Sequence record: SRR20825006_2358
Direction: 5' to 3' (one strand)
Length of the DNA: 40,570 bases
This document shows, in pieces, positions 4,597 through 25,101 of the stretch. The notes under the pieces are model-generated. The model saw only the letters and a list, made by a program, of their open reading frames with translations, made no database searches and was not told the DNA's origin. The translations under genes and the position numbers were made by a program. Numbering within the stretch: the first letter of the stretch is position 1; each line of letters starts with the position of its first letter.

Positions 4597-5058
4597 TCAA
4601 ACCTTAAGAGGGGGTTCCAGCGTCAACATGACGAGGTGTAGGAGGGTCCGGCGGCCTAGCTGAAGTCGTCTGATGACTATCTGTTCGCTGAGACCGAGAT
4701 CTGTGGCGATCCTGGTGGGCGGATGATTCAGAATTTCCGCGCGCCACACCACCTCGGCGTAGCGGGGTTCCAAGAGACGCATAAGCGTTTCGATAAACTC
4801 CTGCAGAATTGCCTCCATCTCGGTGTCGTCGGAGCCGTCCGAGTCCGGTGGACACCCAGAATCTCCCTCCCCGTCGCTATTTCCGTTCCGGCCTTTGTGT
4901 GCCGCCAAAACGCCACCATCAAGGCTGTCGCGCTGGCGTCGGCATGGCTGGCACCTTGGGGTTAAAAACCCTTCTGGATGAACGAGCTGTTCGTTATCTG
5001 GATCAATCAGGCCGGCTTTTGAAGCGGCGCGGTTTCCATCTTCCATCGTCTCGATCAC
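4597..5058 (-). CDS. Sigma region-4-only protein related to the local CorE-like sigmas
   Basis: C-terminus LEPRYAEVVWRAEILNHPPTRIATDLGLSEQIVIRRLQLGRRTL resembles sigma4 of both intact sigmas, with no sigma2. GTG start with GGAGGAG RBS. N-terminal half contains CQPC. Confidence 0.6.
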   Translation of the reverse strand: MIETMEDGNRAASKAGLIDPDNEQLVHPEGFLTPRCQPCRRQRDSLDGGVLAAHKGRNGNSDGEGDSGCPPDSDGSDDTEMEAILQEFIETLMRLLEPRYAEVVWRAEILNHPPTRIATDLGLSEQIVIRRLQLGRRTLLHLVMLTLEPPLKV

Positions 5059-5128: not shown

Positions 5129-5155
5129 GACGTGAATGGGTCGCCGAAAGTTACA
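5129..5155 (-). promoter_or_regulatory. Putative ECF promoter TGTAAC-N17-CGTC (toward sigma4-only gene, CDF, DMTs)
   Basis: GTTACA at 5150-5155 and GACG at 5129-5132 on the + strand; intergenic. Confidence 0.65.
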
Positions 5156-5229: not shown

Positions 5230-5255
5230 TGTAACGGAGCCAGCCGGGCATCGTC
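5230..5255 (+). promoter_or_regulatory. Putative ECF promoter TGTAAC-N16-CGTC (phaB-phaA)
   Basis: TGTAAC at 5230-5235 and CGTC at 5252-5255; intergenic and divergent from the previous site. Confidence 0.7.
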
Positions 5256-5361
5256 TTCTAGACATGGAGGACCCCGAAGGATTGAGCCCGTCAGGAGGAA
5301 TGAACGTGATCAAAGACCTTGCCCAACGCGACACAACGCAATCTGCAGTTTTCGCACAAGG

Positions 5362-5379
5362 CTGCAACGGCCGTTGCAG
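5362..5379. promoter_or_regulatory. Perfect 18-bp palindrome CTGCAACGGCCGTTGCAG, possible operator upstream of phaB
   Basis: Self-complementary 18-mer ending 33 bp before the phaB ATG. Confidence 0.45.
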
Positions 5380-5411
5380 AGCGGCTGGTATCTCTTACGG
5401 GGGTTGAAATC

Positions 5412-6134
5412 ATGGGACGAACGGCATTGGTGACCGGCGGCACGCGCGGAATCGGCTCCGCGATTGCCAGAACCCTGCGCGATGCGGGCTATACGGTCGC
5501 CGCTAGCTACCACGGCAACGATCTGGCGGCCGAAGACTTCAAGGCGGCAACGGGCATCCCTGTTTTCAAATGGGATGTGGCCGATGACGAGGCCTGCGCC
5601 GCCGCCGTCGCGAAAATCACCACCGCATATGGCCCGGTCGAGATTCTCGTGAACAATGCGGGGATCACCCGCGACGCTATGCTCCATAAATTAACGTCAG
5701 AGCACTGGCGCGCGGTAATCGATACCGATTTGACCGCTTGTTTCACTATGTGCCGCACCGTCATTTCCCCGATGCGGGAGCGCGGTTACGGCCGCATTAT
5801 CAACATCAGCTCGATTAATGGCCAGAAGGGCCAACTGGGCCAGACCAACTATGCGGCGGCGAAAGCCGGTCTTCTGGGATTCACCAAGGCGCTAGCGCTC
5901 GAGAGCGCCGCCAAAGGCGTCACCGTCAACGCCATTGCCCCGGGCTATATCGAGACCGACATGGTCGCCGACGTTCCCCCTAAGGTTCTCGATAGCATCG
6001 TCGCCCAGATCCCGGTCGGCCGCCTCGGCCAACCCGAGGAAATTGCCCGGGCCGTGGTGTTTCTGGCGAGCGACGACGCGGGTTTCATCACGGGTTCGAC
6101 ACTGACCGTCAATGGCGGCCAGTACCTGATCTGA
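5412..6134 (+). CDS. phaB: Acetoacetyl-CoA reductase
   Basis: ALVTGGTRGIG, NNAGITRD, SSINGQKGQLGQTNYAAAKAG, NGGQYL. ATG 5412 matches the usual family N-terminus. Confidence 0.92.
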   Translation: MGRTALVTGGTRGIGSAIARTLRDAGYTVAASYHGNDLAAEDFKAATGIPVFKWDVADDEACAAAVAKITTAYGPVEILVNNAGITRDAMLHKLTSEHWRAVIDTDLTACFTMCRTVISPMRERGYGRIINISSINGQKGQLGQTNYAAAKAGLLGFTKALALESAAKGVTVNAIAPGYIETDMVADVPPKVLDSIVAQIPVGRLGQPEEIARAVVFLASDDAGFITGSTLTVNGGQYLI

Positions 6135-6185: not shown

Positions 6186-7373
6186 ATGACTCACAAGCAG
6201 GTTATGCTTTGTACCCCCGTGCGCACCGCGATCGGCACCTATGGAGGATCCTTGAAAGATCTGCCGGCGACCGAGCTCGGCGCAACGGCGATCCGCGCGA
6301 CGATCGAGCGGTCGGGCGTCGATCCCTCGCTCGTTCAAACCGTGGTCATGGGACAGGTGATCCAGGCGGGCGCCAGAATGAACCCTTCACGCCAGGCGGC
6401 AATCGGTGCTGACATTCCGGTTGGCGTGCCAGCGATGACCGTCAATCGGGTGTGCGGCTCTGGGGCTCAGGCGATCGCCTCGGCGGCCCAGGAGATCATG
6501 CTCGGACATATCGACTGCGCGGTCGCCGGCGGCATGGAGAACATGGACCAGGCCCCCTACATCGTTCAAAACGGGCGCTGGGGTTATCGCATGGGTGATG
6601 CCCAGATGCACGACAGCATGCTCCGTGACGGCCTGAACGACGCCTTTTCCAGCGAGCACTCCGGCTGGCACACGGAAGACTTGGTGAAGAAGGCTCAGAT
6701 TACGCGCGAAGATCAGGATCGCTGGGCCGAACGCTCTCAGCGGCGCTTTTCCGAGGCGCAGGCTGCTGGCAATTTCAAGCAAGAGATCGCTCCGGTAGAA
6801 CTCAAGACTCGTAAGGAGACGACCACATTCGACGCCGATGAACACAACCGACCCGACACGACCCTCGACAGTCTGAGCAAGCTCAGGCCTGCCTTCCGCA
6901 AGGAGGGTACGATTACGGCTGGCAATGCGCCGGGACTCAACAGCGGCGCGGCGGCGATGATAATCGCCGAGGCGACTTGGGCGGAGAAGAACGGTCTTAA
7001 ACCCATGGCCAGGTTGGTTTCCTACGGTGTGGGCGCGGTCGATCCCGGCATGTTCGGCCTCGGACCGGTACCGGCCGTCTTTCAGGCTCTGGAGCGGGCG
7101 GGCTGGAGCGTTGGCGATCTCGACCGCGTCGAGATCAATGAGGCCTTTGCCGCCATTGCCGTTGCGCTCGCGCGTGAGATCGGAATCGAACAAGACATCG
7201 TCAACGTCGAAGGCGGCGCTATTGCCCACGGTCATCCGATCGGCGCAACGGGGGCCGTTTTGACGACGCGACTCCTGCATGCAATGGAGCGCAATGGGGT
7301 CAAGCGGGGCTTGGTGACGCTCTGCATCGGCGGCGGGCAGGGCATCGCACTCACCTTGGAGCGGACGTCCTGA
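6186..7373 (+). CDS. phaA: Acetyl-CoA C-acetyltransferase (beta-ketothiolase)
   Basis: NRVCGSG, NEAFA, GHPIGATG, LCIGGGQG thiolase motifs. Confidence 0.92.
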   Translation: MTHKQVMLCTPVRTAIGTYGGSLKDLPATELGATAIRATIERSGVDPSLVQTVVMGQVIQAGARMNPSRQAAIGADIPVGVPAMTVNRVCGSGAQAIASAAQEIMLGHIDCAVAGGMENMDQAPYIVQNGRWGYRMGDAQMHDSMLRDGLNDAFSSEHSGWHTEDLVKKAQITREDQDRWAERSQRRFSEAQAAGNFKQEIAPVELKTRKETTTFDADEHNRPDTTLDSLSKLRPAFRKEGTITAGNAPGLNSGAAAMIIAEATWAEKNGLKPMARLVSYGVGAVDPGMFGLGPVPAVFQALERAGWSVGDLDRVEINEAFAAIAVALAREIGIEQDIVNVEGGAIAHGHPIGATGAVLTTRLLHAMERNGVKRGLVTLCIGGGQGIALTLERTS

Positions 7374-9455: not shown

Positions 9456-9562
9456 GCAGTTGCCAAGCCCCGCTCATCATCCGGCGATCACGCTATTTTC
9501 GAGATTTATATCGCAACAGGTGAAAATGATCTCTCGCCATATCTACGAGGCCGGGAGAGAAC

Positions 9563-10177
9563 ATGACTGACGATCAAGACAGTGATTCACCACGAGACGC
9601 TGTCCATGCAGTCATGGTGGAAATTCAGCAGGACTTCTTTCGCTTTCTCGCGCGGCGGCTCGGCAATGAAGAGGAGGCCGCCGACGTTCTGCACGATTTC
9701 TACGTCAAGGTGCTTGCCCGGGTTGGCGATGTTCGCGACACGGAAAAGCTGCGCGCCTGGATGCGCCGGGTGTTGGAGACGACGTTAGTCGACTATTACC
9801 GCGCCCAAGGCAAGAAGCGTCAAAGGGACGCGGAATACCACTATCTGGAGTCAGTGCTCTTGACCGGCGAAGCCAAGAGCGATCTCGATCTCTTTGTCTG
9901 TGTGTGCCTTTACAAACTTCTTCCGACCCTAAAGTCGGAGTATGCGGAAATCTTGTGGCGCGCCGACTTGATCGGCGAGTCCCGCCAAAGTATCGCTGGC
10001 ACGCTCGGCATCACGGAGAGCAATTTTCGCGTGCGTCTGCACCGGGCCCGCCAGGCCTTGCGGCAGCAGCTGGAAGAGACCTGTCGGACCTGCCCAATTC
10101 ATGGCTATCTCGATTGCGAGTGCGACTACGCCGGCCATGTTCGTGCGGAGATCGGGGAAGGACCCTCCGAACTGTAA
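9563..10177 (+). CDS. ECF sigma factor, CorE-like with CxC linker and Cys-rich domain
   Basis: Sigma2 (AADVLHDFY, WMRRVLETTLVDYYR), linker CVC, sigma4, tail CRTCPIHGYLDCEC. Confidence 0.9.
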   Translation: MTDDQDSDSPRDAVHAVMVEIQQDFFRFLARRLGNEEEAADVLHDFYVKVLARVGDVRDTEKLRAWMRRVLETTLVDYYRAQGKKRQRDAEYHYLESVLLTGEAKSDLDLFVCVCLYKLLPTLKSEYAEILWRADLIGESRQSIAGTLGITESNFRVRLHRARQALRQQLEETCRTCPIHGYLDCECDYAGHVRAEIGEGPSEL

Positions 10178-10198
10178 CGAATTGCTCCCCGGACCGTC
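10173..10198 (+). promoter_or_regulatory. Putative ECF promoter TGTAAC-N16-CGTC overlapping the sigma stop codon (phasin to phaC operon)
   Basis: TGTAAC at 10173-10178 and CGTC at 10195-10198. Confidence 0.7.
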
Positions 10199-10293
10199 TA
10201 TCTGAACGACGGCCCGAATACATTGGCGCGCCGTCGCGCACCAGCTTCAGGTCACCCGTTCTCAATCTGATGGACCATCCGAAGGAGCCGACC

Positions 10294-10740
10294 ATGCCAA
10301 ACACATCCAAACCCACCAATCCCGCAGTTCTGCAGTATCGGGGGCTCGACCTCGAAGCCATCACGGCCCTGCAAATGCGTAATGTTGAAGCGCTCCGGAG
10401 CATGACGAATCTCATGTTCGACACGACGGAAGCGGTCACTAGGCGCCAGGCCGAATTCCTTGAAACCCGCGTCGGCCAGATGAGCGCGGCGTTCGAGCCT
10501 GGCGAAAACGCTTCGGATCCAAAGGCTCTTTTCGAACGGCAAGCCGAGGCCTATCGCGATCTCTTCGGGGCGCTCGCCAGCCATGTTGGGGAGCTTGCCG
10601 AGATCACGTCCAAATGCTGCGCCGGGCTGGTGCACGAGGCGAGCCGAGCGGCGGCGGGCCAGGACGACGAGAGCGCTGCCGTGAAGCGGTCGGAGAACGA
10701 CGGCACCGCAGCCTCGAAGACAAGCGCAGCGAAAAAGTAG
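10294..10740 (+). CDS. phaP: Phasin family protein
   Basis: DLEAITALQMRNVEAL...EAVTRRQAEFL resembles alphaproteobacterial phasins. AAGGAG RBS before ATG 10294; PHA gene context. Confidence 0.7.
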   Translation: MPNTSKPTNPAVLQYRGLDLEAITALQMRNVEALRSMTNLMFDTTEAVTRRQAEFLETRVGQMSAAFEPGENASDPKALFERQAEAYRDLFGALASHVGELAEITSKCCAGLVHEASRAAAGQDDESAAVKRSENDGTAASKTSAAKK

Positions 10741-10755
10741 TCGCGGGCAGGGTTC

Positions 10756-11115
10756 ATGAACGCGCTTTCCTACTTCCTGATCTGGGCGGTGATCATCTTC
10801 GTGATGATGCGCTTCGGCTGCGGCGCCCATGTCATGGGACATGGGCACGGCAAGGCCAAGCACGGCGATGCGAACCACAGCCGGCAAAAGAATGCCGAGG
10901 AGTTGCGGTGGATTCCCCCAACCAAGGACGTCGATCCCGTCTGTGGCAAGACCGTCAGTACCGACAAGGCCAAGCCGAGCGTCCATGACGGCAGTGTTTA
11001 TTATTTTTGCTCGCGGGAATGCCGGGAGCGCTTTGAGGCTGCGCCCGAGCAATATGTCGGACCCGGTGCCAAGACCGAGACGCCGACGCCCCAGTTGGAG
11101 GACCGCCATGTCTGA
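10756..11115 (+). CDS. Membrane-anchored YHS/TRASH metal-binding protein
   Basis: N-terminal TM plus MMRFGCGAH, His-rich linker, DPVCGK...YYFCSRECRERF. Confidence 0.85.
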   Translation: MNALSYFLIWAVIIFVMMRFGCGAHVMGHGHGKAKHGDANHSRQKNAEELRWIPPTKDVDPVCGKTVSTDKAKPSVHDGSVYYFCSRECRERFEAAPEQYVGPGAKTETPTPQLEDRHV

Positions 11116-11446
11116 TCTCAATATCTCTTCGAGGACGCCGCCGCGCGCGGGGACGCCCCTGCCGGTTCAGTCTGCTTCAAGAATACCCGTGATGGCGCTC
11201 GGCTTGAGCCTAGGCCTCTTCCTGGCCGTCACCTTCGCTCTTTGCGTCGGCTTCGACCTTTTGTTTCCCGGCCAGGCGATGTATCAAAGCTGGTTCCGGC
11301 TCCTTCCTGGCTTCACTTGGCTGAGCTGGCAGAGCTTTTTCCTCGGCCTGGCCGAGAGCTTCGCCTATGGCTGGTATGTGGCACTGGTCTTCGCGCCGCT
11401 TTACAATTTCTTTGCCGCGCACAGTGGCCGGGGAGGCCGGCCATGA
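11108..11446 (+). CDS. DUF5676-like membrane protein
   Basis: LLPGFTWLSWQSFFLGLAESFAYGWYVALVFAPLYN; overlaps both neighbours, consistent with operon packing. Confidence 0.7.
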   Translation: MSDLNISSRTPPRAGTPLPVQSASRIPVMALGLSLGLFLAVTFALCVGFDLLFPGQAMYQSWFRLLPGFTWLSWQSFFLGLAESFAYGWYVALVFAPLYNFFAAHSGRGGRP

Positions 11447-13266
11447 CGACGGCAAAGAGGCAAAAAGCCACGACCGATGCCGGCGACAAACGGGCACCCG
11501 CACTTAAACTGGTAAGCCAGGCGGATGCCCGGCGTCAGAAGCGTGTGGAGGATGCTTCGGACGCTCGACTGCCGGGCCAGGATCTCGTCGACTACCAGGT
11601 CGACCTCTGGCAGCGGACGATCCTTTTCTGGGACACGCTCAGACAACGCGCCGACAATATGCTCGAGCATGAACGCGCCGGTTTGCCGCCGTTGCTCGAC
11701 TTCAAATACGAGACGATCCTCGACGCACGGCGCTTCGAGCCTCCCGCGAACTATGCGCTCCTGCGGATTACGGAAGTCGGCGATGACTGCTGGGACGACT
11801 GCGTCGATCCCGACAAGCCGCCGGTCATCGTGGTCGATCCGCGCGCCGGGCACGGGCCGGGGATCGGCGGGTTCAAGCACGATTCCGAAGTCGGCATGGC
11901 GCTCCACGAGGGGCATCCAACATATTTCGTGATCTTTTTCCCGGAGCCATCGCCCGGCCAGACACTGGCCGACGTGTTACATGCACTCAGGCGCTTCGTG
12001 GAGGAGGTCGCCGGACGCCATTCCGGCACGCCGCCTGTCCTTTACGGCAACTGTCAGGCCGGTTGGGCGATGACTCTGCTCTCGGCCGACTGTGAGGGTC
12101 TGGTCGGCCCTGCTGTGCTGAACGGCTCGCCGCTGTCCTATTGGTCAGGCGAGGCCGGCGTCAATCCGATGCGGGTGACCGGAGGACTGCTCGGCGGCGC
12201 CTGGCTCACGCATTTGACGGCCGATCTCGGCAACGGCCGCTTCGATGGCGCGTGGCTGGCCCTGAATTTCGAGAACCTGAAGCCGGAAAAGGCTATTTGG
12301 GAGAAATACGCCGGTCTGTTCCACAAGGTCGATACCGAGAGCGAGCGCTTCCTCGAGTTCGAGCGCTGGTGGAACGGGTTCTATTTCCTCAGCCGCGAAG
12401 AAATACTGGCGATCGTCGAAAACCTGTTCATCGGCAACAAGCTGGAACAGGGCATCATGCGCATCTGCGACGGCTGCATCGCCGATTTGCGCCGCATCCG
12501 CAATCCGTTGGTCATCTTTGCCTCCTACGGAGACAACATCACGCCGCCGCATCAGGCTCTGGGCTGGATTCCGACCGTATATGAGGATACGGCCGATCTG
12601 AAGAAGGCGGGTCAACGGATCGTCTATCTGACCAATCCGCATGTGGGCCATCTCGGCATCTTCGTGTCGGCCAAGGTCGCCCGCCTTGAACATCGCGCCA
12701 TTCTCGAAAACCTCGATGAGATCGAAGCCCTCGCTCCGGGCCTCTACGAGATGAAGATCGACAACCCGAGCGGCGACCCCGACTGCCACAAGCCGCAATT
12801 CACCGTGCGGTTTGACGAGCGGCGGGTCGAGGATCTGAAGTTTCCGGAGCAAAGCCAGGCATTCGAACAAGTGCGGGCTGTTTCCGAGGCGGGCGAGGCG
12901 TTCTACCGGAGCTTCGTCAGTCCGTGGGTTCAGATGGCGAGCAATCCATGGACCGCGGAGTCGTTGAAGTGGCTGCATCCGATGCGAACGAGCCGTTACT
13001 TGTTTTCCGAGTCGTTCAACCCATGGATGCGCGGTGTCGCGGCTCTGGCAGATGGTATTGCCAAGACGCGGAAACCGCTGCCCGAGGATCATCCTTTGCT
13101 GGAAAGGGAACGGGAGCTTTTCGCCGAATTTTTCGGGGCGATCGAGCAGGTCCGCGAGTGGCGCGACGCCGGCTACGAACAGGCGTTCGGGCAGCTTTAC
13201 GGCCAGGAGACATCCGCGGCGGGAACAGTAGGGAATGAAGGCGAGGCGAAGAACGATGGCCGTTGA
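11443..13266 (+). CDS. DUF3141 alpha/beta hydrolase (PHA synthase/depolymerase-like)
   Basis: DPRAGHGPGIGGFK, GNCQAGW nucleophile elbow, GDNITPP, GHLGIFVS; ATGA coupling at 11443. Confidence 0.85.
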   Translation: MTTAKRQKATTDAGDKRAPALKLVSQADARRQKRVEDASDARLPGQDLVDYQVDLWQRTILFWDTLRQRADNMLEHERAGLPPLLDFKYETILDARRFEPPANYALLRITEVGDDCWDDCVDPDKPPVIVVDPRAGHGPGIGGFKHDSEVGMALHEGHPTYFVIFFPEPSPGQTLADVLHALRRFVEEVAGRHSGTPPVLYGNCQAGWAMTLLSADCEGLVGPAVLNGSPLSYWSGEAGVNPMRVTGGLLGGAWLTHLTADLGNGRFDGAWLALNFENLKPEKAIWEKYAGLFHKVDTESERFLEFERWWNGFYFLSREEILAIVENLFIGNKLEQGIMRICDGCIADLRRIRNPLVIFASYGDNITPPHQALGWIPTVYEDTADLKKAGQRIVYLTNPHVGHLGIFVSAKVARLEHRAILENLDEIEALAPGLYEMKIDNPSGDPDCHKPQFTVRFDERRVEDLKFPEQSQAFEQVRAVSEAGEAFYRSFVSPWVQMASNPWTAESLKWLHPMRTSRYLFSESFNPWMRGVAALADGIAKTRKPLPEDHPLLERERELFAEFFGAIEQVREWRDAGYEQAFGQLYGQETSAAGTVGNEGEAKNDGR

Positions 13267-14473
13267 TGGCGCGATCCTGGTCATCAATAGTGGATCCTCC
13301 AGCGTCAAGTTCGCGCTGTTCGACGCGGCTCCCGCCGAGCCCCAGCGAACCTGGTCGGGTTCTCTGGAACGCATTGGCTTCGACGAAGGACGTTTCCTTG
13401 TGAGGGCAGCGGACGGGACGGCACTGGTCGATGAAATGCGGGCAATTCCCGACCATGACGCGGCCCTCGACCTGCTTCTGAACTGGGCCGAGGATCGCGA
13501 CACGCAAGCGACACCCGTTGCCGTTGGCCACCGGTTGGTACATGGCGGAGAGGGCTGTGATTGTTCGCTTGTGGTCACGCCCGCGCTTGAGGTCCGGCTG
13601 AAGCAACTGGTCCCGCTCGCGCCCCTCCATCTGCCCCATAACCTGGCCGGCATCACGGCGGTCCGACGACAACGGCCCGATCTCCCGCAGGTCGCCTGCT
13701 TCGACACCGCGTTTCACCATGGCTTGTCACGTGTGGCGCGCTTGACCGGCTTGCCGCGCCGTTTCGAGCAAGAGGGTATCCGGCGCTACGGTTTTCACGG
13801 CCTGTCTTATGAGTATGTCATCGGCGAGGTACGCCGGCGTGACGGCGACGCAGCTGCGGAGGAACGAATCATTGTTGCCCATCTCGGCAACGGCGCGTCG
13901 ATGGCGGCGATCAGGAACGGACACAGCGTCGAGACCACCATGGGCTTCAGTACACTTGCCGGCCTTCCCATGGGGACGCGTCCCGGCGATCTCGATCCCG
14001 GCGTTCTCCTGCATCTCCTGATCGAAAAGCAAATGACTCCCGACGCCCTTCAACAGGTGCTCTACACCGAATCGGGCCTGCTCGGTCTGTCCGGCTTGAG
14101 CCGCAACATGGCCGATCTCCTGGCCCGGCGGGACGTTCCAGAGGCGGCGGAGGCGATCGACTTCTTCAGCCACCATGCACGCCGGCACCTGGCTGGCCTG
14201 ACGGCCGCGCTCGGCGGTCTCGATCGGTTGATTTTCACCGGCGGTATTGGCGCTAACTCGCCCGAAATCCGCGCCAGCATCTGCGAGGGGCTCGATTATC
14301 TCGGTCTCACGCTTGATGCGGAGCGGAACGCCGGTCAACAACGCGTTGTCTCGACCGACGACAGCGGTGTGCTCATCGAAGCCTTCAAGACTGACGAGGA
14401 GTTGGCCATCGCGCGCCATACTCAAAACATTCTGAGGGCATCCGGAAAGGAGAATGTGCGAGCCCATGGTTGA
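13256..14473 (+). CDS. ackA: Acetate/propionate kinase
   Basis: INSGSSSVKF, GHRLVHGG, FDTAFH, RRYGFHGLSY, HLGNGAS, FTGGIG. Confidence 0.92.
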   Translation: MAVDGAILVINSGSSSVKFALFDAAPAEPQRTWSGSLERIGFDEGRFLVRAADGTALVDEMRAIPDHDAALDLLLNWAEDRDTQATPVAVGHRLVHGGEGCDCSLVVTPALEVRLKQLVPLAPLHLPHNLAGITAVRRQRPDLPQVACFDTAFHHGLSRVARLTGLPRRFEQEGIRRYGFHGLSYEYVIGEVRRRDGDAAAEERIIVAHLGNGASMAAIRNGHSVETTMGFSTLAGLPMGTRPGDLDPGVLLHLLIEKQMTPDALQQVLYTESGLLGLSGLSRNMADLLARRDVPEAAEAIDFFSHHARRHLAGLTAALGGLDRLIFTGGIGANSPEIRASICEGLDYLGLTLDAERNAGQQRVVSTDDSGVLIEAFKTDEELAIARHTQNILRASGKENVRAHG

Positions 14474-15476
14474 TCATCCCGCCACTCTCGAAGATCTCGT
14501 CGCACGCGCGAAGGAGCGCACGCCGATCCGCGTCGCCGTGGTCGCCGCCGATCAAGGCCTTGTCCTCGAAACGGTTCAGGAAGCCGTGGCGCTTGGCCTG
14601 ATCGAGCCCCGGCTCGTCGGCGATCCCGACGCGATTCTGGCCTGCGCAGCCTCCTCCAATGTGGAGATCGACCGGGCTGCGATCGTATCCGCAAAGAGCG
14701 ACGCCGAGACAGCCCGCGCCGGTGTCGATCTCGTCCGAAACGGCGATGCCGACGCGGTCATGAAAGGTCACATTCACACCGATGCCTTCATGCGGGCCCT
14801 GCTAGACACGGACCAGGGCCTCAGACTCCCAGGTCGCCGCGTCAGCCACGTCTTCATGGTCGACATTCCAGCCTATCCGAAGCTCCTCGCGATCACGGAC
14901 GCGGCCATCAACATCATGCCGGACCTCAACGCGAAAGCGCAGATTCTTGAGAACGCCATCGCACTTTTCACGCTCCTTGGCATAGAAGCACCGAAGGCAG
15001 CTGTGTTGTCGGCGGTCGAGACGGTCAATCCGGCCATTGCATCGACCCTCGACGCGGCCTGTCTCGCTTTGATGGCCAAACGGGGCCAGATTGCAGGTGC
15101 GATCGTCGATGGCCCGATGGCTTTTGACAACGCCATCTCAGCCGACGCAGCCCGCGAGAAAGGCATCGTCTCGGAGGTCGCCGGAGATGTCGATATCCTG
15201 CTGGTCCCCGATCTCGTTTCCGGCAACATCTTGGCCAAGAATCTCGAATATCTGGCCGGCGCCACGGCGGCGGGCGTCGTCATGGGCCTCGCCGCGCCGG
15301 TGGTGCTCAGCTCCCGCGCCGATCCGCCGGCCGCCCGGTTGGCGGCGCTGGCGCTCGCCGTCCTGATGCATCAACCTGCGCTGCCTCGGTCGCAGCAGTT
15401 GCAACAAGGAGAATCGGAATCGGCCATTCATTGCGCGGCTCAACCTGAAGCCGCGTGCTGTCCGATGGGAGCGTGA
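14466..15476 (+). CDS. pta: Phosphate acetyl/butyryltransferase
   Basis: MKGHIHT, TDAAINIMPDL, DGPMAFDNAIS, GNILAK, SRAD; extra tail CAAQPEAACCP. Confidence 0.85.
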   Translation: MVDHPATLEDLVARAKERTPIRVAVVAADQGLVLETVQEAVALGLIEPRLVGDPDAILACAASSNVEIDRAAIVSAKSDAETARAGVDLVRNGDADAVMKGHIHTDAFMRALLDTDQGLRLPGRRVSHVFMVDIPAYPKLLAITDAAINIMPDLNAKAQILENAIALFTLLGIEAPKAAVLSAVETVNPAIASTLDAACLALMAKRGQIAGAIVDGPMAFDNAISADAAREKGIVSEVAGDVDILLVPDLVSGNILAKNLEYLAGATAAGVVMGLAAPVVLSSRADPPAARLAALALAVLMHQPALPRSQQLQQGESESAIHCAAQPEAACCPMGA

Positions 15477-15479
15477 ACC

Positions 15480-17264
15480 ATGGGGCACCATCCAACGAAA
15501 ATACGAACGGAGCAAACCGCGCTGGCAACGCCTCGCAACGAACCGATGGGAAGGGGTTTATCCCTGGATCAACCTCTCCACGCGACACTCGGGCAGATCA
15601 CCGCCGGTGTGTCGCCCGTGGCGCTTGCTCAAGCGTATACGGACTGGGCGCAGCATCTCGTCATGTCGCCCGACAAGCAAATAGAACTAGTTCGGAAGGC
15701 CGCCCGCAAATGGGCGCGCTATCTGGAATACTGTTCACGGGCTTGCTCGGATCCTCATTGCGAGGCCTGCATCGAGCCCCTGCCGCAGGACAAACGCTTT
15801 GCCGGTGATCCGTGGCAGGCATGGCCATATAACGCGATCTATCAGGGTTTTCTCCTGACCCAGCAATGGTGGCACAACGCCACAACCGGCATCTCCGGCG
15901 TCTCCAGGCACCATGAAGAGGTCGTTTCCTTCGTTGCCCGGCAGTTGCTCGATATGATGTCGCCTGCGAATTTTCCGTCGAGCAACCCCGAGGTCCTGAA
16001 GGAGACCCTCGATACCGGGGGCCAAAATCTGGTACGCGGCGCGGTGAACTTCTTCGAGGACTGGCAACGCGCGGTCCGTGGGGGGCCACCTGCCGGCACG
16101 GAACGGTTTGCGGTCGGCGACAACCTGGCGGTTACACCGGGCCAAGTGATTTTCCGTAACGAATTGATCGAACTGATCCAATACATGCCGGCGACGGATA
16201 AGGTTCATCCCGAGCCTATCCTGATCGTGCCTGCCTGGATCATGAAATACTATATCCTCGACCTTAGCCCCGAGAACTCGCTGGTGAAATACTTGGTCGA
16301 GAAGGGTCACACGGTCTTCATGATCTCCTGGAAAAATCCGACGGTCGAAGATCGCGACCTTGGTATGGAGGACTATCGCCGGCTGGGCGTCATGGCCGCG
16401 CTCGACGCGGTGTCAGCTATCGCGCCGGAAAGCCGCGTCCACGGCGTCGGCTACTGCCTCGGTGGAACGCTCTTATCGATTGCTGCGGCGGCCATGGTCC
16501 GCGATGGCGACGACCGGCTGGCAACCATGACCCTCTTCGCCGCGCAGACGGACTTCACGGAAGCCGGCGAATTGATGCTGTTCATTGACGCGGCCCAGGT
16601 CAGCTTTCTTGAGGACATCATGGCCGAGCAGGGCTGTCTCGATACCAAGCAGATGGCCGGCACGTTCCAGCTGCTTCGCTCCAACGACCTCATCTGGTCG
16701 GCCATGGTTCAGAATTATCTCATGGGACAGCGCCGACCGATGTTCGACCTGATGGCGTGGAATGCTGACGCCACGCGCATGCCTGCCAGGATGCACTCCG
16801 AATATCTCCGGCAGCTGTTCCTCGATAATGATCTGGCGGACGAACGCTATTGCGTCGACGGTCGCCCGGTGTCGTTGCATGACATCCGCATTCCGATTTT
16901 TGCGGTCAGCACGCTCTCGGACCATGTCGCGCCGTGGCGGTCGGTTTACAAGATCCACAGCCAAACCAATGCTGATGTTACCTTCGTACTATCCAATGGC
17001 GGCCACAATGCCGGCATTGTGAGCCCACCTGGCAACACCCGGCGTCGTCACCAGATCGCCACCCACGATGATCTCGCGGCCTACCTGGACCCTGACACCT
17101 GGCAGGCGCGGGCCACCCACCATGAGGGTTCATGGTGGCCCTGTTGGCTAGGGTGGCTTAGCAACCATTCGGGTGAACCCGTTAAGCCCCCTGGCCTGGG
17201 GGCGGCGCGCAAGGGCTATCGGCGGCTGGGCGAAGCGCCCGGCACCTATGTGCTGATGCCCTGA
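15480..17264 (+). CDS. phaC: Class I PHA synthase
   Basis: TPGQVIFRNELIELIQY, PAWIMKYYILDLSPENS, lipase box GYCLGG, DHVAPW, GHNAGIV, SWWP. Confidence 0.92.
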   Translation: MGHHPTKIRTEQTALATPRNEPMGRGLSLDQPLHATLGQITAGVSPVALAQAYTDWAQHLVMSPDKQIELVRKAARKWARYLEYCSRACSDPHCEACIEPLPQDKRFAGDPWQAWPYNAIYQGFLLTQQWWHNATTGISGVSRHHEEVVSFVARQLLDMMSPANFPSSNPEVLKETLDTGGQNLVRGAVNFFEDWQRAVRGGPPAGTERFAVGDNLAVTPGQVIFRNELIELIQYMPATDKVHPEPILIVPAWIMKYYILDLSPENSLVKYLVEKGHTVFMISWKNPTVEDRDLGMEDYRRLGVMAALDAVSAIAPESRVHGVGYCLGGTLLSIAAAAMVRDGDDRLATMTLFAAQTDFTEAGELMLFIDAAQVSFLEDIMAEQGCLDTKQMAGTFQLLRSNDLIWSAMVQNYLMGQRRPMFDLMAWNADATRMPARMHSEYLRQLFLDNDLADERYCVDGRPVSLHDIRIPIFAVSTLSDHVAPWRSVYKIHSQTNADVTFVLSNGGHNAGIVSPPGNTRRRHQIATHDDLAAYLDPDTWQARATHHEGSWWPCWLGWLSNHSGEPVKPPGLGAARKGYRRLGEAPGTYVLMP

Positions 17265-17376
17265 CCCAGGCTGTGACCCTGTCGTCCGCAGCTATGTCTG
17301 GTCCCGAATAATATCGTGCGCGGCGAGACGGATCGCGCCTGGCCCGCCTGGCCGGAGAAAGGAGCAAGCGCAAAAA

Positions 17377-18159
17377 ATGGAACTCATCGATATGAAAGGC
17401 CGGAAGGGGTTGGTGGTGGGAATTGCCAACGAACACAGTTTGGCCTGGTCGGCGGCCCAGCATTTTCGGAACGCCGGCGCCGATCTTGCCATCACCTATC
17501 TGAACGACAAGGCCAAGCCCTTTGTTGAGCCGCTTTCGCAACAGGTGGACGCGCAACTTTTCCTGCCCTGCAATGTCGCCGAGCCGGGACAATTGGAGGC
17601 CGTCTTCGGGGAGATCGAGCAGAAATGGGGCCGATTGGATTTTCTGTTTCATGCGATCGGGTGGGCCCGTAAGGAAGATCTCCATGGCCGGTTGACCGAT
17701 TGTTCGGGAGAAGGCTTCGCTGAATCGATGCTTATCTCGTGCCACTCCTTCATCCGTATGGCGAAGCTCGCCGAGCCGCTCATGGACAAAGGTGGCAGCT
17801 TGACGACGCTCAGCTACTACGGCGCAGAAAAAGTGGTCGATCATTACAATGTCATGGGGCCAGTCAAAGCCGCCCTTGAAGCGTCTGTACGCTACCTGGC
17901 CCATGAACACGGTGGCAAGGCGATCCGGGTGAACGCGATTTCGGCCGGGGCGGTCGCGACACGCGCCGCCTCGGGCATCGAGCATTTCGACGAACTATTG
18001 AATGAGACCGTCCGCAAGGCACCGCTGCGGCGCACGGTGGACGCCTGCGAGGTGGGACGTACGGCGCTTATGCTGGCGAGCGATTATACGAGCGCCATCA
18101 CCGGGGAAACGCTCTACGTCGACGCGGGCTTTCACATCGAAGGGATGGTGTTTCACTGA
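17377..18159 (+). CDS. fabI: Enoyl-ACP reductase
   Basis: GIANEHSLAW, YYGAEKVVDHYNVMGPVKAALE, NAISAG, TRAASGI. Confidence 0.9.
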   Translation: MELIDMKGRKGLVVGIANEHSLAWSAAQHFRNAGADLAITYLNDKAKPFVEPLSQQVDAQLFLPCNVAEPGQLEAVFGEIEQKWGRLDFLFHAIGWARKEDLHGRLTDCSGEGFAESMLISCHSFIRMAKLAEPLMDKGGSLTTLSYYGAEKVVDHYNVMGPVKAALEASVRYLAHEHGGKAIRVNAISAGAVATRAASGIEHFDELLNETVRKAPLRRTVDACEVGRTALMLASDYTSAITGETLYVDAGFHIEGMVFH

Positions 18160-18374
18160 TGGCCGGCTTCGAACCCGAAAAAGACGTAGTGGTCACCGAC
18201 CCGGTATGCGGCATGCGCCTGACGCCCGAAAAGGCCGTCGCTCACGAGGAGCGTGAGGGCTGGGCGTATTTTTTCTGCTCGGAGGGCTGTCACAAGCTCT
18301 TTCTTACAGCGCCGGAACGATACTCCTCCTCACTGGCCTATTTCTCGCAGCCATCGGCCGGTAAGGATACGTAG
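18159..18374 (+). CDS. Stand-alone YHS domain protein
   Basis: DPVCGMRL...YFFCSEGCHKLF...PERY; coupled to the fabI stop. Confidence 0.85.
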   Translation: MAGFEPEKDVVVTDPVCGMRLTPEKAVAHEEREGWAYFFCSEGCHKLFLTAPERYSSSLAYFSQPSAGKDT

Positions 18375-18653
18375 CCGCAGACCTGTGACGTCAGACGAAG
18401 AACGGATCGTCGTAAAAGCGTGAGCGATGCGTCCCTTGCAGAGGACCTTTACGAGTATCCGGGACGCAATTTTGTAGGGTTTCGAACGACCGATCTATGG
18501 AAGATCGGCAGCCGATTTCGGGCCGAGTGCCGCTGTTCCGCCTTCGCTCTACGCCTGTTCAGGCACGGCAGGCGAGGCTCCCAAAGGGCTTCAGACGATC
18601 TCTGCCGCCTCAGTCCGCCCGCCCGGCGGCCACTGCCTGTGAATCCCCGTCAC

Positions 18654-18679
18654 TGTAACGCTGAGCGTCTCTCGTCGTC
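18654..18679 (+). promoter_or_regulatory. Putative ECF promoter TGTAAC-N16-CGTC (SHOCT-copA operon)
   Basis: TGTAAC at 18654-18659 and CGTC at 18676-18679; intergenic. Confidence 0.7.
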
Positions 18680-18812
18680 CTTATAGATGTGAGAACAGAG
18701 ATCCTGCGAACGTTTCCGCGAATACCGACAGCGGTGACGGTTTGTACGCCGAAGTCGCATTTCACATCGAAGAGATGATTGGACAGGCCATGTACCACGA
18801 AAGGAGCGTCAA

Positions 18813-19148
18813 ATGAGAAGACGATTGACGAATTTGGCCCTGGCGCTGCCCACCGCGGTGGTCTCGATGCCGGCACTTGCGCAAACCTCGGCCGATCGAT
18901 CCGACTATTGGCACTATGGCTGGGGCTGGGGACACATGATTTTTGGCTCCGTCATGATGATTGTCTTCTGGGGCGGGATCATCCTCGCGATCGTGCTCGC
19001 GGTCCGCTGGCTGGGTGGCGATTCAGGACGGGTAACCCGATCGCAATCACGAACGAACGGGCCCCTCGACATCCTTCACGAACGCTTTGCCCGCGGCGAG
19101 ATCGACAAGGAAGAGTTCGAAGAACGAAAGCGTCTGCTCTCCGACTGA
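18813..19148 (+). CDS. SHOCT domain membrane protein
   Basis: Signal peptide, [45 protein letters not shown]. Confidence 0.85.
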
Positions 19149-19227
19149 AACCGTCTTCCAACAAAAGCCAGAGCCGCGGAAGACCGCACATCCATCGTCA
19201 ATCGAACCGGAAAGCCGGAACAAGCCA

Positions 19228-21588
19228 ATGAATAAGCACGATGATCACGATCACAGCCATCGCTCTGACGGTACAACAGGTTCCGTCAAGGCTATGACGG
19301 CCAGAGATCCGGTTTGCGGAATGACGGTGCAGTTGGATCAGGACAAGCCGAGCCAAGAGTACGAGGGTGAGACCTATCACTTTTGTTCTCAAAAGTGCCA
19401 CGACAAGTTCGCGGCCGACCCGGAGCATTATCTCGCCGGCGAGCACAAGGCCGAAACAGCGCCTAAGGGCACGAAATATACCTGCCCGATGCATCCCGAG
19501 ATCGTGCGGGACGAACCGGGAGAATGTCCGATCTGCGGCATGGCGCTGGAGCCTATGGGGGTTCCAGCCCCCGATGACGGACCGAATCCCGAGCTTGTTG
19601 ATTTCAAGCGCCGGTTTTGGATCGGCGCCGTGCTGACGGTTCCGCTTCTTGTGCTGACGATGGGCCCCTTTGTTGGGCTCGGTTTCGTCCGCGACATCTT
19701 CGGCGAGCGTGCGACGCTGTGGATCGAACTCGCTTTGGGGACACCGGTCATTCTCTGGGCCGGTTGGCCATTCTTCGTGCGTGGCGTCAAGTCGGTGATC
19801 AACCGCAGTCTCAACATGTTCACGCTCATCGGGATGGGCGTCGGCGCGGCCTATCTCTTCAGTGTCGTCGCCGTGCTCGTGCCGGAGATTTTCCCGGACG
19901 GATTTCGCGATGCGGAGGGCCATGTCGGGGTTTATTTCGAAGCCGGCGCCGTGATCGTCGTGCTGGTGCTGCTCGGCCAGGTGATGGAGCTTGGCGCGCG
20001 CGAGCGAACGGGCTCGGCGATTCGCGCCCTTTTGGATATGGCCGCCAAGACCGCCCGGGTGATCCGCAAGGACGGGAGCGAGGAAGAAATCCCGCTCGAG
20101 GACGTCAAGGTCGGCGATCGGCTGCGCGTCCGCCCGGGCGATAAGGTCCCCGTCGACGGCGTGGTGGTCGAGGGACGTTCGTCGATCGATGAATCGATGA
20201 TCTCTGGCGAACCGGTTCCGGTCGAGAAAGTCGAGGGCGACAAGGTCACCGGCGCCACAATCAACGGCACGGGCAGTCTCGTGATCGAAGCCGAACGCGT
20301 CGGCTCCGACACCATGCTGAGCCAGATCGTCGAGATGGTCGCGAACGCGCAGCGCAGCCGTGCCCCGATCCAGAAACTTGCCGACTCTGTGGCGGGCAAG
20401 TTCGTACCGGCCGTGATCGTCATTGCAATTCTCTCGTTCATCGCATGGTCTCTTTGGGGGCCTGCCCCGGCCCTCTCATACGGACTGGTCTCGGCAGTCG
20501 CCGTTTTGATCATCGCCTGTCCGTGCGCGCTGGGCCTGGCAACGCCGATGTCGATCATGACGGCGACGGGCCGAGGCGCGCAAGCCGGCGTGCTCATCAA
20601 GAACGCCGAGGCGCTGGAACGCTTCGCCAAGGTCGACACGCTGATCGTCGACAAGACGGGGACGCTGACCGTCGGCAAGCCGAAGCTCGTCGCGGTCTTG
20701 CCGCAACCCGGGCATGAGGAGGACGAGGTGCTGCGCTTGGCCGCAAGCCTGGAGCGGGGCTCGGAGCACCCACTCGCCGAAGCCATCGTCACCGGGGCCG
20801 AAGAACGCGATGTTGCGCTGGCTAACGCGGATGAATTCGAAGCCGTCACCGGCAAAGGGGTAAAAGGCGTCGTCGACGGCAAATCAGTGGCGCTCGGCAA
20901 CGCAAAGCTGCTCGCCGATCTGGGGCTCGACGGCGGCAAGCTCTCCGAGACCGCCAATGCTCGACGTGACGAAGGCGAAACGGTGATGTTCGTCATCGTC
21001 GGGTCCGAAATCGCCGGTCTCGTGTCGGTTGCCGATCCGGTCAAGGAGACGACGCCGGACGCGCTGAAGGCGCTGCACGAACAAGGCTTCCGCATCGTCA
21101 TGGCGACTGGCGACAACGAGCGTACCGCGAAGGCGGTGGCTGGAAAACTCGGGATCGACGAGATCCGTGCCGACGTGTTGCCCGAAGACAAGGCGCGCAT
21201 CATCAAGGATCTGCAAGACGAAGGCCGAAAGGTCGTGATGGCAGGCGATGGCGTCAACGACGCGCCTGCACTGGCCCAGGCCGATGTCGGCATCGCCATG
21301 GGCACCGGCGCCGACGTGGCGATCGAGAGCGCGGGTTTCACCTTGGTCAAGGGTGATCTCAACGGCATCGTCCGGGCCAGGAAGCTCTCGCGCGCGACGA
21401 TGCGCAACATCAAGCAGAACCTGTTCTTCGCCCTGTTCTACAACGCCGCAGGCGTGCCGGTGGCGGCAGGGGTTCTGTTCCCGTTCTTCGGGATTTTGAT
21501 CTCGCCGATATTCGCAGCCGCGGCGATGAGCCTGTCGTCCGTATCGGTAGTCGGCAACGCTCTCCGGCTGCGCTCGGTGAAGATCTAG
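19228..21588 (+). CDS. copA: Cu(I)/Ag(I)-translocating P1B-type ATPase with YHS and CPMHP domains
   Basis: [57 protein letters not shown]. Confidence 0.93.
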
Positions 21589-22764: not shown

Positions 22765-23007
22765 ATGGCGCAGCATGAAACCAGCGGCTTTCGGAGCTTC
22801 ATTTTCTCCCGTTCGGGCATGGTGTTGCTCGGATTCCTGGCAGTGGCGGGTTACTTCCTGTGGGAAGAGCATGCCGCGCATATTCTGGGCTATCTGCCGC
22901 TCCTCCTCATTCTCGGACTCTGCGTGGGCATGCATTTCTTCATGCATGGCAGCCACGGGGGCGATCACGGATCGCACCGCGACGAACCGCGGGAGGACGA
23001 CAGATGA
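22765..23007 (+). CDS. DUF2933 membrane protein
   Basis: YFLWEEHAAH...LCVGMHFFMHGSHGG. Confidence 0.8.
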   Translation: MAQHETSGFRSFIFSRSGMVLLGFLAVAGYFLWEEHAAHILGYLPLLLILGLCVGMHFFMHGSHGGDHGSHRDEPREDDR

Positions 23008-23675
23008 GCAACGAAGTTCCAGCCTACGGCCTCTGGTTCTTGGTGGTGGTCAACTCGGCGATCTTCATCCTGTTCGCCTTTAGCTTCTTTAAGCCGAAGA
23101 CTGGCCGGGACTGGCGCTCATTCGGTGCTTTCAGCGCCTTTCTGGTCGCGCTTTTCACTGAGATGTACGGCTTCCCGCTCACCATATATTTCCTATCGGG
23201 CTGGTTGCAGACCAACTACCCAAGCGTCGACTGGCTTGCCCATGATTCCGGCCATCTCCTGGAAATGCTGTTTGGCTGGAAGGCAAACCCGCACCTCGGG
23301 CCCTTCCACATTCTGAGTTTCGGCTTTATCGGCGGCGGGTTCATCCTGCTCTCCGCCGCTTGGCGCGTCCTTTACCAAGCACAACGGACGGGAACGCTCG
23401 CGACCACGGGGCCTTACGCCCGCATTCGCCATCCTCAATATGTCGGCTTCGTCCTGATTCTGGTTGGGTTCCTGTTCCAGTGGCCGACCATTCTCACACT
23501 GGCGATGTTTCCCGTTCTGCTTGTCATGTACTGGCGTCTTTCCCTGCGCGAAGAGCGGGAAGTCGAAGCCGAATTGGGTGACGTGTACCGACGCTACGCC
23601 GAGAGAGTGCCCCGGTTCATGCCCCGCCTCAAAGACATTTTCACCAGCCCGGCCGTTGAGGGGGACCGACAATGA
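23004..23675 (+). CDS. Isoprenylcysteine carboxylmethyltransferase-family membrane protein
   Basis: ALFTEMYGFPLTIY, TGPYARIRHPQY, EE...YRRY..RVPRF; typical partner of DUF2933 in copper clusters. Confidence 0.85.
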   Translation: MSNEVPAYGLWFLVVVNSAIFILFAFSFFKPKTGRDWRSFGAFSAFLVALFTEMYGFPLTIYFLSGWLQTNYPSVDWLAHDSGHLLEMLFGWKANPHLGPFHILSFGFIGGGFILLSAAWRVLYQAQRTGTLATTGPYARIRHPQYVGFVLILVGFLFQWPTILTLAMFPVLLVMYWRLSLREEREVEAELGDVYRRYAERVPRFMPRLKDIFTSPAVEGDRQ

Positions 23676-24199: not shown

Positions 24200-25101
24200 C
24201 GGCGTCCGTTCGCCAGCGCCTCACCAACCGCGCCCGCGAGCGCGGCGAGGACGTCGATCTCGTCTTCATCCGCTACGCCCTGGAACGGCTTCTCTATCGC
24301 CTCGGGACGTCTGGTCATTGGGACCGCTTCATCCTGAAAGGCGCCCTGCTCTTCATCCTCTGGACCGGTGAACCGTATCGCGCCACGCGCGACCTCGACC
24401 TTCTCGGCTTCGGCGAACGGGACATCGAGGCGCTGACCACGACCTTCCGGGCGCTCTGCGATACGCCCGTGGAGGAAGACGACGGCCTTGAGTTCATCAC
24501 CGAGTCCGTCCAGGTCGAGCCGATGCGGGACGAGGAAGGGCACCCCGGCGCCCGCGTGCGCCTCGAGGCACAGCTCGCCAGTGCCCGCCTATCGGTTCAG
24601 GTCGACATCGGTTTCGGCGACGCCGTGACGCCGAAGGCCGAGGAGATCGAGTCCCCGTCGCTTCTCGCGCTTCCCGCCCCGCGCATCCGCGCCTATCCAC
24701 GGGAGACGGTAGTCGCCGAAAAGTACGAGGCGATCGTCTCGCTCGGCATGCTGAACAGCCGGATGAAGGACTTCTACGATCTCTGGGTGCTGGCGTCGTC
24801 CTTCCCGTTCGATGGACAGACGCTCGCCCCGGCGGTCCGCGTCACCTTCGACCGGCGCGGCACCGCGCTGCCCGAGGTCACCCCGGTGGGGCTGAGCGAC
24901 GAGTTCGCGGGCGACCGGGGCAAGCAGCAGCAGTGGCAGGCATTCCAACGCCGGGGACGCCCGGCTCTTCCGCCACCGGCGCTCCCCGATGTGGTCGGCT
25001 CCATCAGGGAATTCCTCACGCCGCTCACGGAAGCGCTCCGCCAAGGGCAGCCGTTTGACCGGCAATGGTCGGAAGGGGGATCCCCTGGCGTCGTGACGTG
25101 A
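24199..25101 (+). pseudogene. abiEii: AbiEii type IV TA nucleotidyltransferase toxin, start removed by the IS
   Basis: Open frame from 24199: SASVRQRLTNRARERGED...RYALERLLYRL...FILKGALL...RATRDLD...AEKYEAIV...NSRMKDFYDLW. There is an in-frame TAG at 24157-24159 and no start codon until the internal GTG at 24469. Confidence 0.8.

Follow-up and report, generated by a model that had tools for sequence, protein, structure and literature searches.

Gene content of the locus

The stretch of DNA analysed here (40,570 nucleotides of sequence record SRR20825006_2358, in the following the window) carries, on the + strand, a run of closely spaced genes (9563-21588), in which the genes of a polyhydroxyalkanoate (PHA) pathway stand between genes for a CorE-like sigma factor and a copper ATPase, and five of the encoded proteins bear cysteine motifs that are kept in one lineage of such loci and missing outside it. 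The run begins with the sigma factor (9563-10177, Pfam Sigma70_r2 and r4_2), which is CorE-like, of the ECF44 type (ECF, extracytoplasmic function), and lies directly upstream of the phasin operon. The phasin (10294-10740) matched Pfam Phasin_2 (PF09361) with 47.1 bits against a gathering score of 24.9 and reached 26.3 with TIGR01841, under the cut-off of 30.2. It is followed by a small YHS-domain protein (10756-11115, Pfam YHS) that has a hydrophobic segment at its N-terminus and a stretch rich in His, and by a DUF5676 protein with two transmembrane segments (11108-11446, Pfam DUF5676), an annotation also found on a Halomonas plasmid. The short-form DUF3141 protein (11443-13266) is a PhaC-like alpha/beta hydrolase, as judged from Pfam, alignments, AlphaFold2 (AF2) modelling and Foldseek. 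An acetate/propionate-family kinase follows (AckA, 13235-14473, Pfam Acetate_kinase, NCBIfam TIGR00016 with a score of 349.8 against a cut-off of 293.4), and then a short Pta/Ptb-type phosphotransacylase (Pta, 14454-15476, Pfam PTA_PTB, NCBIfam NF006045). The PhaC-type PHA synthase (15480-17264, Pfam PhaC_N, PHBC_N and Abhydrolase_1) scored 557.4 bits with the class I model TIGR01838, under the cut-off of 622.65, and was above the cut-offs for PhaC_N and PHBC_N. Further downstream are a FabI-type enoyl reductase (17377-18159, Pfam, and NCBIfam NF005717 above cut-off), a small membrane protein with a SHOCT domain (18813-19148, Pfam SHOCT) and a P1B-type copper ATPase whose N-terminal part has YHS and HMBD domains (CopA, 19228-21588, Pfam) and which scored 590.5 bits with the copper-translocating model TIGR01511 (cut-off 397). 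The CopA sequence contains CPC, YN and MSLSS, which we take to be the motifs of a P1B-1 Cu(I) ATPase.

The start of the DUF5676 gene overlaps the stop of the YHS gene by 8 bases, and its own stop overlaps the start of the DUF3141 gene (ATGA at 11443); several gene junctions of the run overlap or abut in this way, which is consistent with one operon. The window conforms to the DUF3141-pta-ackA-fabI operon type, the four genes being co-directional and adjacent, and this synteny was seen in 29 loci of the lineage. The nearest genome (G001) matched positions 9500-18200 at 100% identity.

Cysteine motifs of the five proteins

A preliminary description of this DNA had read extra cysteine clusters in the phasin, DUF3141, AckA, Pta and PhaC proteins. 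Pfam bore out all five family assignments, and the six motifs named there were each recovered at their positions in the translations of the open reading frames (ORFs). The phasin has C108-C109 (10615-10620). DUF3141 has C116 (11788) and C120 (11800) in DDCWDDC, as well as C342 (12466) and C345 (12475) in ICDGC; two more lineage-specific cysteines, C217 and C448, had not been listed before. In AckA, C108 (13556) and C110 (13562) stand right behind HGGEG, in the motif HGGEG-C108-D109-C110. The C-terminal tail of Pta (H326-C327...C335-C336-P337) contains C327 (15432), C335 (15456) and C336 (15459), and the N-terminal part of PhaC contains C85, C89, C94 and C97 (15732-15770), a CxxxCx4CxxC arrangement with four cysteines in 13 residues. 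The claim that the cysteines are extra held for those that had been named; others in the same proteins are family-wide, namely C204 of DUF3141, the catalytic C326 of PhaC (8/8) and C155 and C350 of AckA (79/80 each).

Judged from the window alone, the clustering of cysteines is only suggestive. Seven close pairs (at most 4 residues apart) were counted in the five proteins, against about 1.15 expected in a shuffle test (the sum of five per-protein expectations), with P values, one per protein, of 0.055, 0.025, 0.11, 0.31 and 0.043; the total cysteine content of the five proteins was ordinary (0.97-1.76%). The case for extra cysteines draws its strength from the homologues, the named residues being kept in the island lineage and missing outside it.

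Distribution of the motifs among homologues

Relatives with their genomic context were collected for AckA in species genomes (80 loci) and for Pta in metagenomes (80 loci), and further relatives of the DUF3141 family came from 401 genomes of the phylum, for which six flanks were fetched. Loci were placed in the decorated lineage or in its sister lineage by clade in the Pta tree, and rows gapped at the scored columns were left out. Many loci were near-copies, 49 of them giving 39 distinct Pta sequences.

The CxC motif of AckA (HGGxxCxC) was present in 39/39 sequences of the decorated lineage and in 0/27 of the sister lineage. Among the 80 species-genome loci, cysteine at both 108 and 110 was found in ten, exactly those ten in which a DUF3141 gene adjoins the kinase; none of the remaining 70 kinases had CxC, position 108 being taken by Tyr, Phe or others and position 110 by Glu, Gln, Lys or others. 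The C-terminal tail of Pta, HCAxQPExACCP, was present in 48 of the 49 rows of the clade, and shorter relatives lack the extension. A search for this tail returned only PTA_PTB proteins (31 of 31 matches), although it was word-based and covered proteins of 187-595 residues, so that other carriers are possible.

At least four of the six extra cysteines of DUF3141 were present in 34/35 proteins of the decorated lineage and in 0/32 of the sister lineage. The short form of the family (15 rows, about 600 amino acids, at least 56% identity) has C116, C120, C217, C342, C345 and C448, the first two within a four-residue insertion, whereas the long form (22 rows, about 750 amino acids, 41-50% identity) has C204 only and none of the extra cysteines (0/22). 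One short-form row (L110) has His at 116 and Gln at 120. The PhaC alignment of 133 rows combined the sequence of the window with those of 25 loci and of 107 representatives with a length of 500 amino acids or more, chosen from 150. C94 and C97 were present in 22/22 synthases of the decorated lineage and in 1/3 of the sister lineage, where the PhaC of locus L022 has both residues; at least four cysteines were present in 19 of the 22. The N-terminal cluster was confined to cluster-linked synthases of at least 67% identity, and in its full form it was found in none of about 105 diverse full-length representatives, three of which had C97 alone and one a CxxC. Two cysteines stand in the cluster region of the second PhaC from the nearest genome (L002).

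Residues 108-109 of the phasin read CC in 57 of 62 homologues, SC in three and CS in one, and the remaining homologue is a frameshifted fragment. An AGCCCGPSK-like insert (CCCGPSK) was counted in 26 of the 62 by reading through the listed sequences, and a further GCC segment was seen in a few phasins. No cysteine is present in the best phasin from the nearest genome. The median cysteine content was modestly higher in the lineage, at 1.48 versus 1.23% for AckA, 1.48 versus 1.28% for Pta and 1.16 versus 0.45% for DUF3141.

The preliminary description had held that ordinary homologues lack most of these cysteines, and the comparison bears this out. The alignment comparison that it had proposed, of cysteine occupancy in homologues with and without copper neighbours, likewise came out in its favour: the residues were not equally frequent outside the metal islands, and orthologues within the islands kept them, in the proportions given above.

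The closest undecorated relative was locus L014, whose AckA (58% identity) is without CxC and whose Pta (63%) is cut at the contig end; neither DUF3141, YHS nor CopA was found in the 10 kb upstream, and the locus was left out of the trees since its Pta is incomplete. By record title, members of the decorated lineage belong to Magnetovibrio, Hyphomicrobium, Novosphingobium, Pseudooceanicola, Rhodospirillales, Hyphomicrobiales and Halomonas, and a Halomonas plasmid has all four enzyme motifs. Short-form, cysteine-bearing DUF3141 genes were also seen without AckA or Pta, yet near CopA-like ATPases (L115-L120 and L202). Such stand-alone DUF3141 genes occur in G275, G342, G029 and G128, and on a Burkholderia thailandensis plasmid that carries YHS and cupredoxin genes as well.

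Copper neighbours, sigma factor and promoter motif

Copper neighbours were counted in loci whose two flanks each reach 6 kb or more: a YHS gene, or a CopA with an identity of 40% or higher, was present in the flanks of 23/24 decorated loci and of 0/9 sister loci. The conserved gene order was (sigma)-(phasin)-YHS-DUF3141-AckA-Pta-(PhaC)-FabI-(SHOCT)-CopA, with AckA 5' of Pta in 40/40 lineage loci and the YHS gene directly 5' of DUF3141 in most. The sigma factor of the window has a CxC (C113-V-C115) between sigma2 and sigma4 (Pfam r2 at residues 22-83 and r4_2 at 114-166) and four further cysteines in its last 31 residues (C174, C177, C185 and C187), and these cysteines are conserved in 13 orthologues. 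No anti-sigma domain was detected with Pfam, and the neighbours of the sigma gene are an amino-acid permease and the phasin.

A search with an ECF-type promoter pattern (TGTAAC-N15-19-CGTC) returned four matches in the window against 0.10 expected. One (TGTAACG-N15-CGTC, 10173-10198, + strand) overlaps the stop codon of the sigma gene and lies 5' of the phasin, and another (18654-18679, + strand) lies 5' of SHOCT-copA. The third (5230-5255, + strand) precedes a phaB-like gene, as it also does before PhaB in locus L121, and the fourth (TGTAAC-N17-CGTC, 5129-5155, - strand) points towards a short sigma ORF (4597-5058). The intergenic block downstream of the sigma gene, ACTGTAACG-N15-17-CCGTCT, was invariant in 9/9 aligned loci, with a phasin or a YHS gene next to it. 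The motif was found 62 times in 699 kb of lineage loci and once in 443 kb of sister-lineage loci, and in the lineage it preceded phasin (8), YHS (4), DUF3141 (3), SHOCT (10) and CopA (7) genes. From these sequences, ECF-type promoters of one kind most likely drive both the phasin operon and SHOCT-copA, and we infer that the CorE-like sigma factor reads them and mediates a copper response.

RNA-library runs from four studies contained copies that are 97-99% identical. One contig (X1, 10221-16649) spans phasin to PhaC and another (X4, 9511-18674) spans the region from the sigma gene to past FabI; they give a weak hint that the module is expressed, as contigs cannot prove transcription. X1 (6452 bases) begins at 10221, 23 bases after CGTC and with adapter beyond, although contigs cannot establish a transcript start.

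Origin and maintenance of the motifs

In a tree of 103 complete Pta sequences, the 48 tail-bearing proteins and the tail-less L153 formed one clade of 49 with a support of 100. L153 is cut short inside the tail motif. On the tree of core columns, the tail trait required two changes, one gain and the loss in L153, and the result was the same whether the tail columns were included or only the core columns were used. In the AckA tree (131 rows, columns 106-112 removed), all 40 CxC sequences lay on one side of a branch with a support of 99. All trees were built with FastTree only. Each cysteine motif arose once and was then kept, and the gains were thus parallel among proteins and not repeated in evolution; the parallel gain proposed in the preliminary description stands across the proteins and fails across lineages.

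Both TGC and TGT were found at every conserved cysteine across orthologues of 55-100% identity (the codon count disregards two AckA rows), which indicates that the residues were maintained through synonymous change. On this codon evidence, the conserved cysteines are under purifying selection. Where cysteines were replaced, the substitutes included metal ligands (C342 of DUF3141 by Asp or His, and C116 by His).

Structural setting of the motifs

In an alignment to the Methanosarcina thermophila enzyme (1g99), C108, D109 and C110 of AckA correspond to F99, T100 and T101, two residues past E97. The catalytic residues are retained (R100 for R91, E106 for E97 and E388 for E384); a loss of the metal-binding Glu384 in the kinases of the lineage, which had been considered, was ruled out by the correspondence of E384 with E388. 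C108, D109 and C110 account for three of only ten lineage-specific positions. At other positions, the Glu of the GIGEN motif (E334 in M. thermophila, residue 340 in the AckA of the window) is Ala in 33/36 lineage sequences and Glu in 88/90 others, and Thr 331 is Arg in 36/36 of the lineage; these changes may point to altered nucleotide or substrate handling. The island AckA (G001, C15:30573-31715) is the sole Acetate_kinase match in the nearest complete genome, so the module is not merely a spare copy. Two other PTA_PTB matches are present in that genome, in ORFs of about 770-840 amino acids.

The AF2 model of Pta has a core with a predicted local distance difference test score (pLDDT) above 90 and values of about 44-51 for residues 310-340, so that the C-terminal linker and tail are predicted to be disordered. 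The tail is conserved (mean top-residue frequency of 0.78) and the linker variable (0.47). The model of DUF3141 has a pLDDT of 84.5, and its top Foldseek matches (9knj, 6k3c, 5xav and 5hz2) are PHA synthases; the nucleophile C204 stands in an invariant NCQxGW box. On the Halomonas sp. KO116 plasmid, a hypothetical protein of 111 amino acids (L201, 11642-11977) with CIEC and a Cys-His end is encoded between DUF3141 and AckA; the window has no counterpart of this gene.

Flanking genes and the mobile element

Upstream of the sigma factor, on the + strand, the window encodes a PhaB-like short-chain dehydrogenase/reductase (5319-6134, Pfam adh_short_C2) and a PhaA thiolase (6186-7373, Pfam Thiolase_N and Thiolase_C). 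Pfam also identified a K+ channel, an amino-acid permease, a CDF transporter and EamA transporters 5' of the sigma factor. Two further ECF sigma ORFs lie on the - strand. One (475-1164) was assigned by Pfam, and the other (4597-5058, 153 amino acids) matched Pfam region 4 only, with 23.6 bits, under the cut-off; the latter has its own copy of the promoter motif (5155-5129) and may be a truncated or atypical sigma factor.

Positions 24469-39007 are of a conjugative-element type, with an AbiEii toxin, a LuxR/LuxI quorum-sensing pair, the anti-restriction protein ArdC, a ParB-like protein, an SLT transglycosylase and DUF3363, and have a G+C content of 0.67-0.71 versus 0.56-0.64 in the metal island. 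An integrative conjugative element or a plasmid probably carries the copper/PHA module as its cargo. A near-identity plasmid search gave partial matches only, no record covering at least 80% of the query. ICMT/PEMT-family methyltransferase genes recur beside YHS/CopA, once in the window (22860-23675), twice on the Halomonas plasmid (L201, 3450-4121 and 7306-7965) and once on the Burkholderia plasmid.

Possible roles of the conserved cysteines

We tentatively favour, at somewhat less than an even chance, the reading that the region is a mobile lineage of the DUF3141-AckA-Pta-FabI module carried as copper-island cargo and that its cysteines form metal-thiolate sites, with Cu(I) the likeliest metal. 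The copy in the window is extended by the phasin, the YHS protein, DUF5676 and PhaC, and each core protein of the lineage has gained a cysteine motif of its own: CC (at times with CCC) in the phasin, CWxDC and CxxC with two further cysteines in DUF3141, CxC in AckA, HC...CC in Pta and CxxxCx4CxxC in PhaC. The module would be transcribed together with the Cu(I) ATPase from the same ECF-type promoters under the CorE-like metal-sensing sigma factor. The cysteines would bind metal as thiolates, Cu(I) being the leading candidate, and copper load could switch the enzymes, or copper could be buffered on the enzymes and the granule coat. Cu(I)-thiolate proteins typically show motifs such as CxC, CC, CCC, CxxxC, CxxC and HC. 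Metal-thiolate sites are favoured because of these motif types, the occasional His or Asp replacements and the copper context, and the CCC inserts of the phasin fit the idea of a metal-binding granule surface. The interpretation in the preliminary description is supported in part: its comparative side is borne out by the conservation of the cysteines and by the link to copper genes, and the promoter motif common to the phasin operon and SHOCT-copA adds to this. The metal- or thiol-based regulation that it suggested is a possible role of the cysteines; the gains it invoked are not independent.

Several observations weigh against metal-thiolate sites. Some replacements are not metal ligands (C327 of Pta by Ala or Val, C336 of Pta by Arg, Gly or Ser, and C342 of DUF3141 by Gly, Ser or Asn). 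With a single origin of each motif, the link to copper genes counts as a single evolutionary event, and it may stem from shared ancestry on one type of mobile element and not from function. Genes without an assignment follow 28 of the 62 promoter-motif matches. The Magnetovibrio-type loci (L005, L006, L133-L136 and L142) are absent from both the sigma matches and the motif listing, and their module keeps its cysteines without a CorE-like regulator. The CWxDC insertion of DUF3141 and the tail of Pta fall in low-confidence regions of the models, which are uninformative there, and C108-C110 of AckA are near the substrate site in sequence and might have a part in substrate specificity instead. CorE-like sigma factors can be specific for Cd/Zn and not Cu (PMC4937300).

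Redox chemistry is a first alternative, in which the cysteines would act as thiol switches, oxidised under copper or oxidative stress to disulfides, sulfenates or S-thiolated forms, so that the acyl-phosphate and PHA enzymes are activated or inactivated, with no need for a metal to be kept. It draws on the same conservation and context data, and CxxC, a classic redox motif, is present in DUF3141 and PhaC; the CxC of AckA lies two residues past the Glu aligned with E97, where oxidation could affect catalysis. We consider it unlikely, however, since CC, CCC and CxC, all found in the lineage, are poor disulfide formers and common metal-thiolate motifs, His and Asp at cysteine positions fit metal ligands better than redox pairs, and phasin inserts with three adjacent cysteines do not readily make sense as a switch.

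It is improbable as well that the cysteines make up constitutive Zn or Fe-S sites of a structural kind, which would stabilise this enzyme lineage and be located in copper islands through shared mobile-element ancestry and not through function. The CxxxC and CxxC of DUF3141 and the four cysteines within 13 residues of PhaC do provide the count for a tetrahedral site, and the single origin of each motif means that the link to copper genes could be historical. Nevertheless, PhaC varies between two, three and four cysteines and C342 of DUF3141 is often replaced, which would be unusual for a structural site; the Pta motif is on a tail predicted to be disordered, the CC/CCC of the phasin occur in a helical coat protein without a fold to stabilise, and the promoter motif in common with copA argues for a functional tie.

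A more specific proposal, which we regard as quite unlikely, is that the island builds a copper-buffering polyester granule, in which the cysteine-bearing phasin would coat the PHB and Cu(I)-thiolate bridges would join the cysteine arms or loops of Pta, AckA, DUF3141 and PhaC to the phasin or to each other. Under copper stress the pathway would come together on the granule, where Cu(I) would be kept until exported by CopA, the whole system being switched on by one CorE-like sigma factor.

The cysteines could also be catalytic or carrier thiols: those of the Pta arm, AckA and PhaC would move acyl thioesters or persulfides between active sites, or fit the pathway to thiol-bearing substrates. An engineered kinase-phosphotransacylase-synthase route to polyesters or polythioesters exists, and the module would be its natural counterpart. 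The order AckA, Pta, PhaC is fixed in the 40/40 lineage loci, the Pta tail, with a conserved tip on a variable linker and disorder predicted, resembles a swinging arm, a cysteine is already the nucleophile of DUF3141 and PhaC, and AckA shows the further lineage-specific changes at the GIGEN Glu (to Ala) and at Thr 331 (to Arg). Yet this role leaves the CC/CCC of the phasin and the link to copper genes unexplained, PhaC is missing from many lineage loci that retain the AckA and Pta motifs, and no precedent for a Pta arm was found in the open-access literature and preprints; it is decidedly unlikely. That the motifs are neutral lineage markers riding a successful mobile element is very unlikely, as the cysteines are still in place in proteins of only about 55% identity, their codons having changed synonymously at every site, the tip of the Pta tail is conserved beside a freely varying linker and the pattern spans several alphaproteobacterial orders and Halomonas, even though each motif has a single origin and many loci are near-copies (49 loci, 39 distinct Pta sequences).

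Relation to known systems and significance

The DUF3141-pta-ackA-fabI module is widespread among the sister-lineage loci. Its type is known from the orfA-pta-ackA-fabI operon of Sinorhizobium meliloti (Summers, Denton and McDermott 1999), which is reported to be phosphate-stress inducible via PhoB (PMC8231600); that operon resembles the window in having a DUF3141-type ORF, a short Pta, AckA and FabI in one co-directional operon. The lineage of the window differs in its short-form DUF3141 and fixed AckA-then-Pta order, in the addition of phasin, YHS, DUF5676 and PhaC genes, and in its ECF-type promoter motifs, its copper neighbours and the cysteine motifs in every protein. Island-borne class I PhaC clusters of Pseudomonas, e.g., class I.3 with phaP, DUF3141, eutD, ackA and fabI (bioRxiv 10.1101/2025.03.12.642780), similarly combine PhaC and a phasin with DUF3141, Pta, AckA and FabI on mobile elements. 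The main text of that preprint has no mention of copper or cysteine.

CorE and CorE2 (ECF44) of Myxococcus xanthus have a CxC between sigma2 and sigma4.2 and a C-terminal Cys-rich domain, and they are metal-dependent (PMC4937300; see also PMC3107203). The sigma factor of the window is similar in its CxC, the lack of an evident anti-sigma gene alongside and its location near a Cu P1B ATPase; its C-terminal stretch holds four cysteines, CorE2 being described with six (PMC4937300). The targets reported for CorE are copA, copB and cuoB (PMC4937300), whereas the putative regulon of the window, defined by the promoter motif only, would add a PHA/acyl-phosphate operon with cysteine-decorated products.

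In metallothioneins and the Csp copper storage proteins, the latter helical and Cys-lined, CxC/CC runs serve as Cu(I) sinks. The proteins of the window are like them in motif type only: there is no sequence relationship, each protein has only a few cysteines, which are grafted onto enzymes or a phasin, and membership is not claimed. No link between phasins and Cu(I) stores was found in the open-access literature and preprints, nor was a description of the cysteine motifs and their copper linkage found in open-access papers and preprints, a scope largely outside subscription journals.

What is new is a lineage of a known module type with its own conserved cysteine motif in each protein, travelling with a Cu(I) efflux system with which it is apparently co-transcribed. 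Copper binding by the cysteines would make this the first case found of a storage-polymer and substrate-level-phosphorylation pathway in a copper regulon, with enzymes and a granule coat that act as metal sensors or sinks. DUF3141 and the unexplained DUF3141-pta-ackA-fabI module would gain a testable physiological setting, and the target range of CorE-type sigma factors would be widened. The lineage may also offer two practical leads: bioplastic granules that bind metal could draw on its natural cysteine-tagged phasins, and its mobile module may make marine and biofilm bacteria more tolerant of copper.

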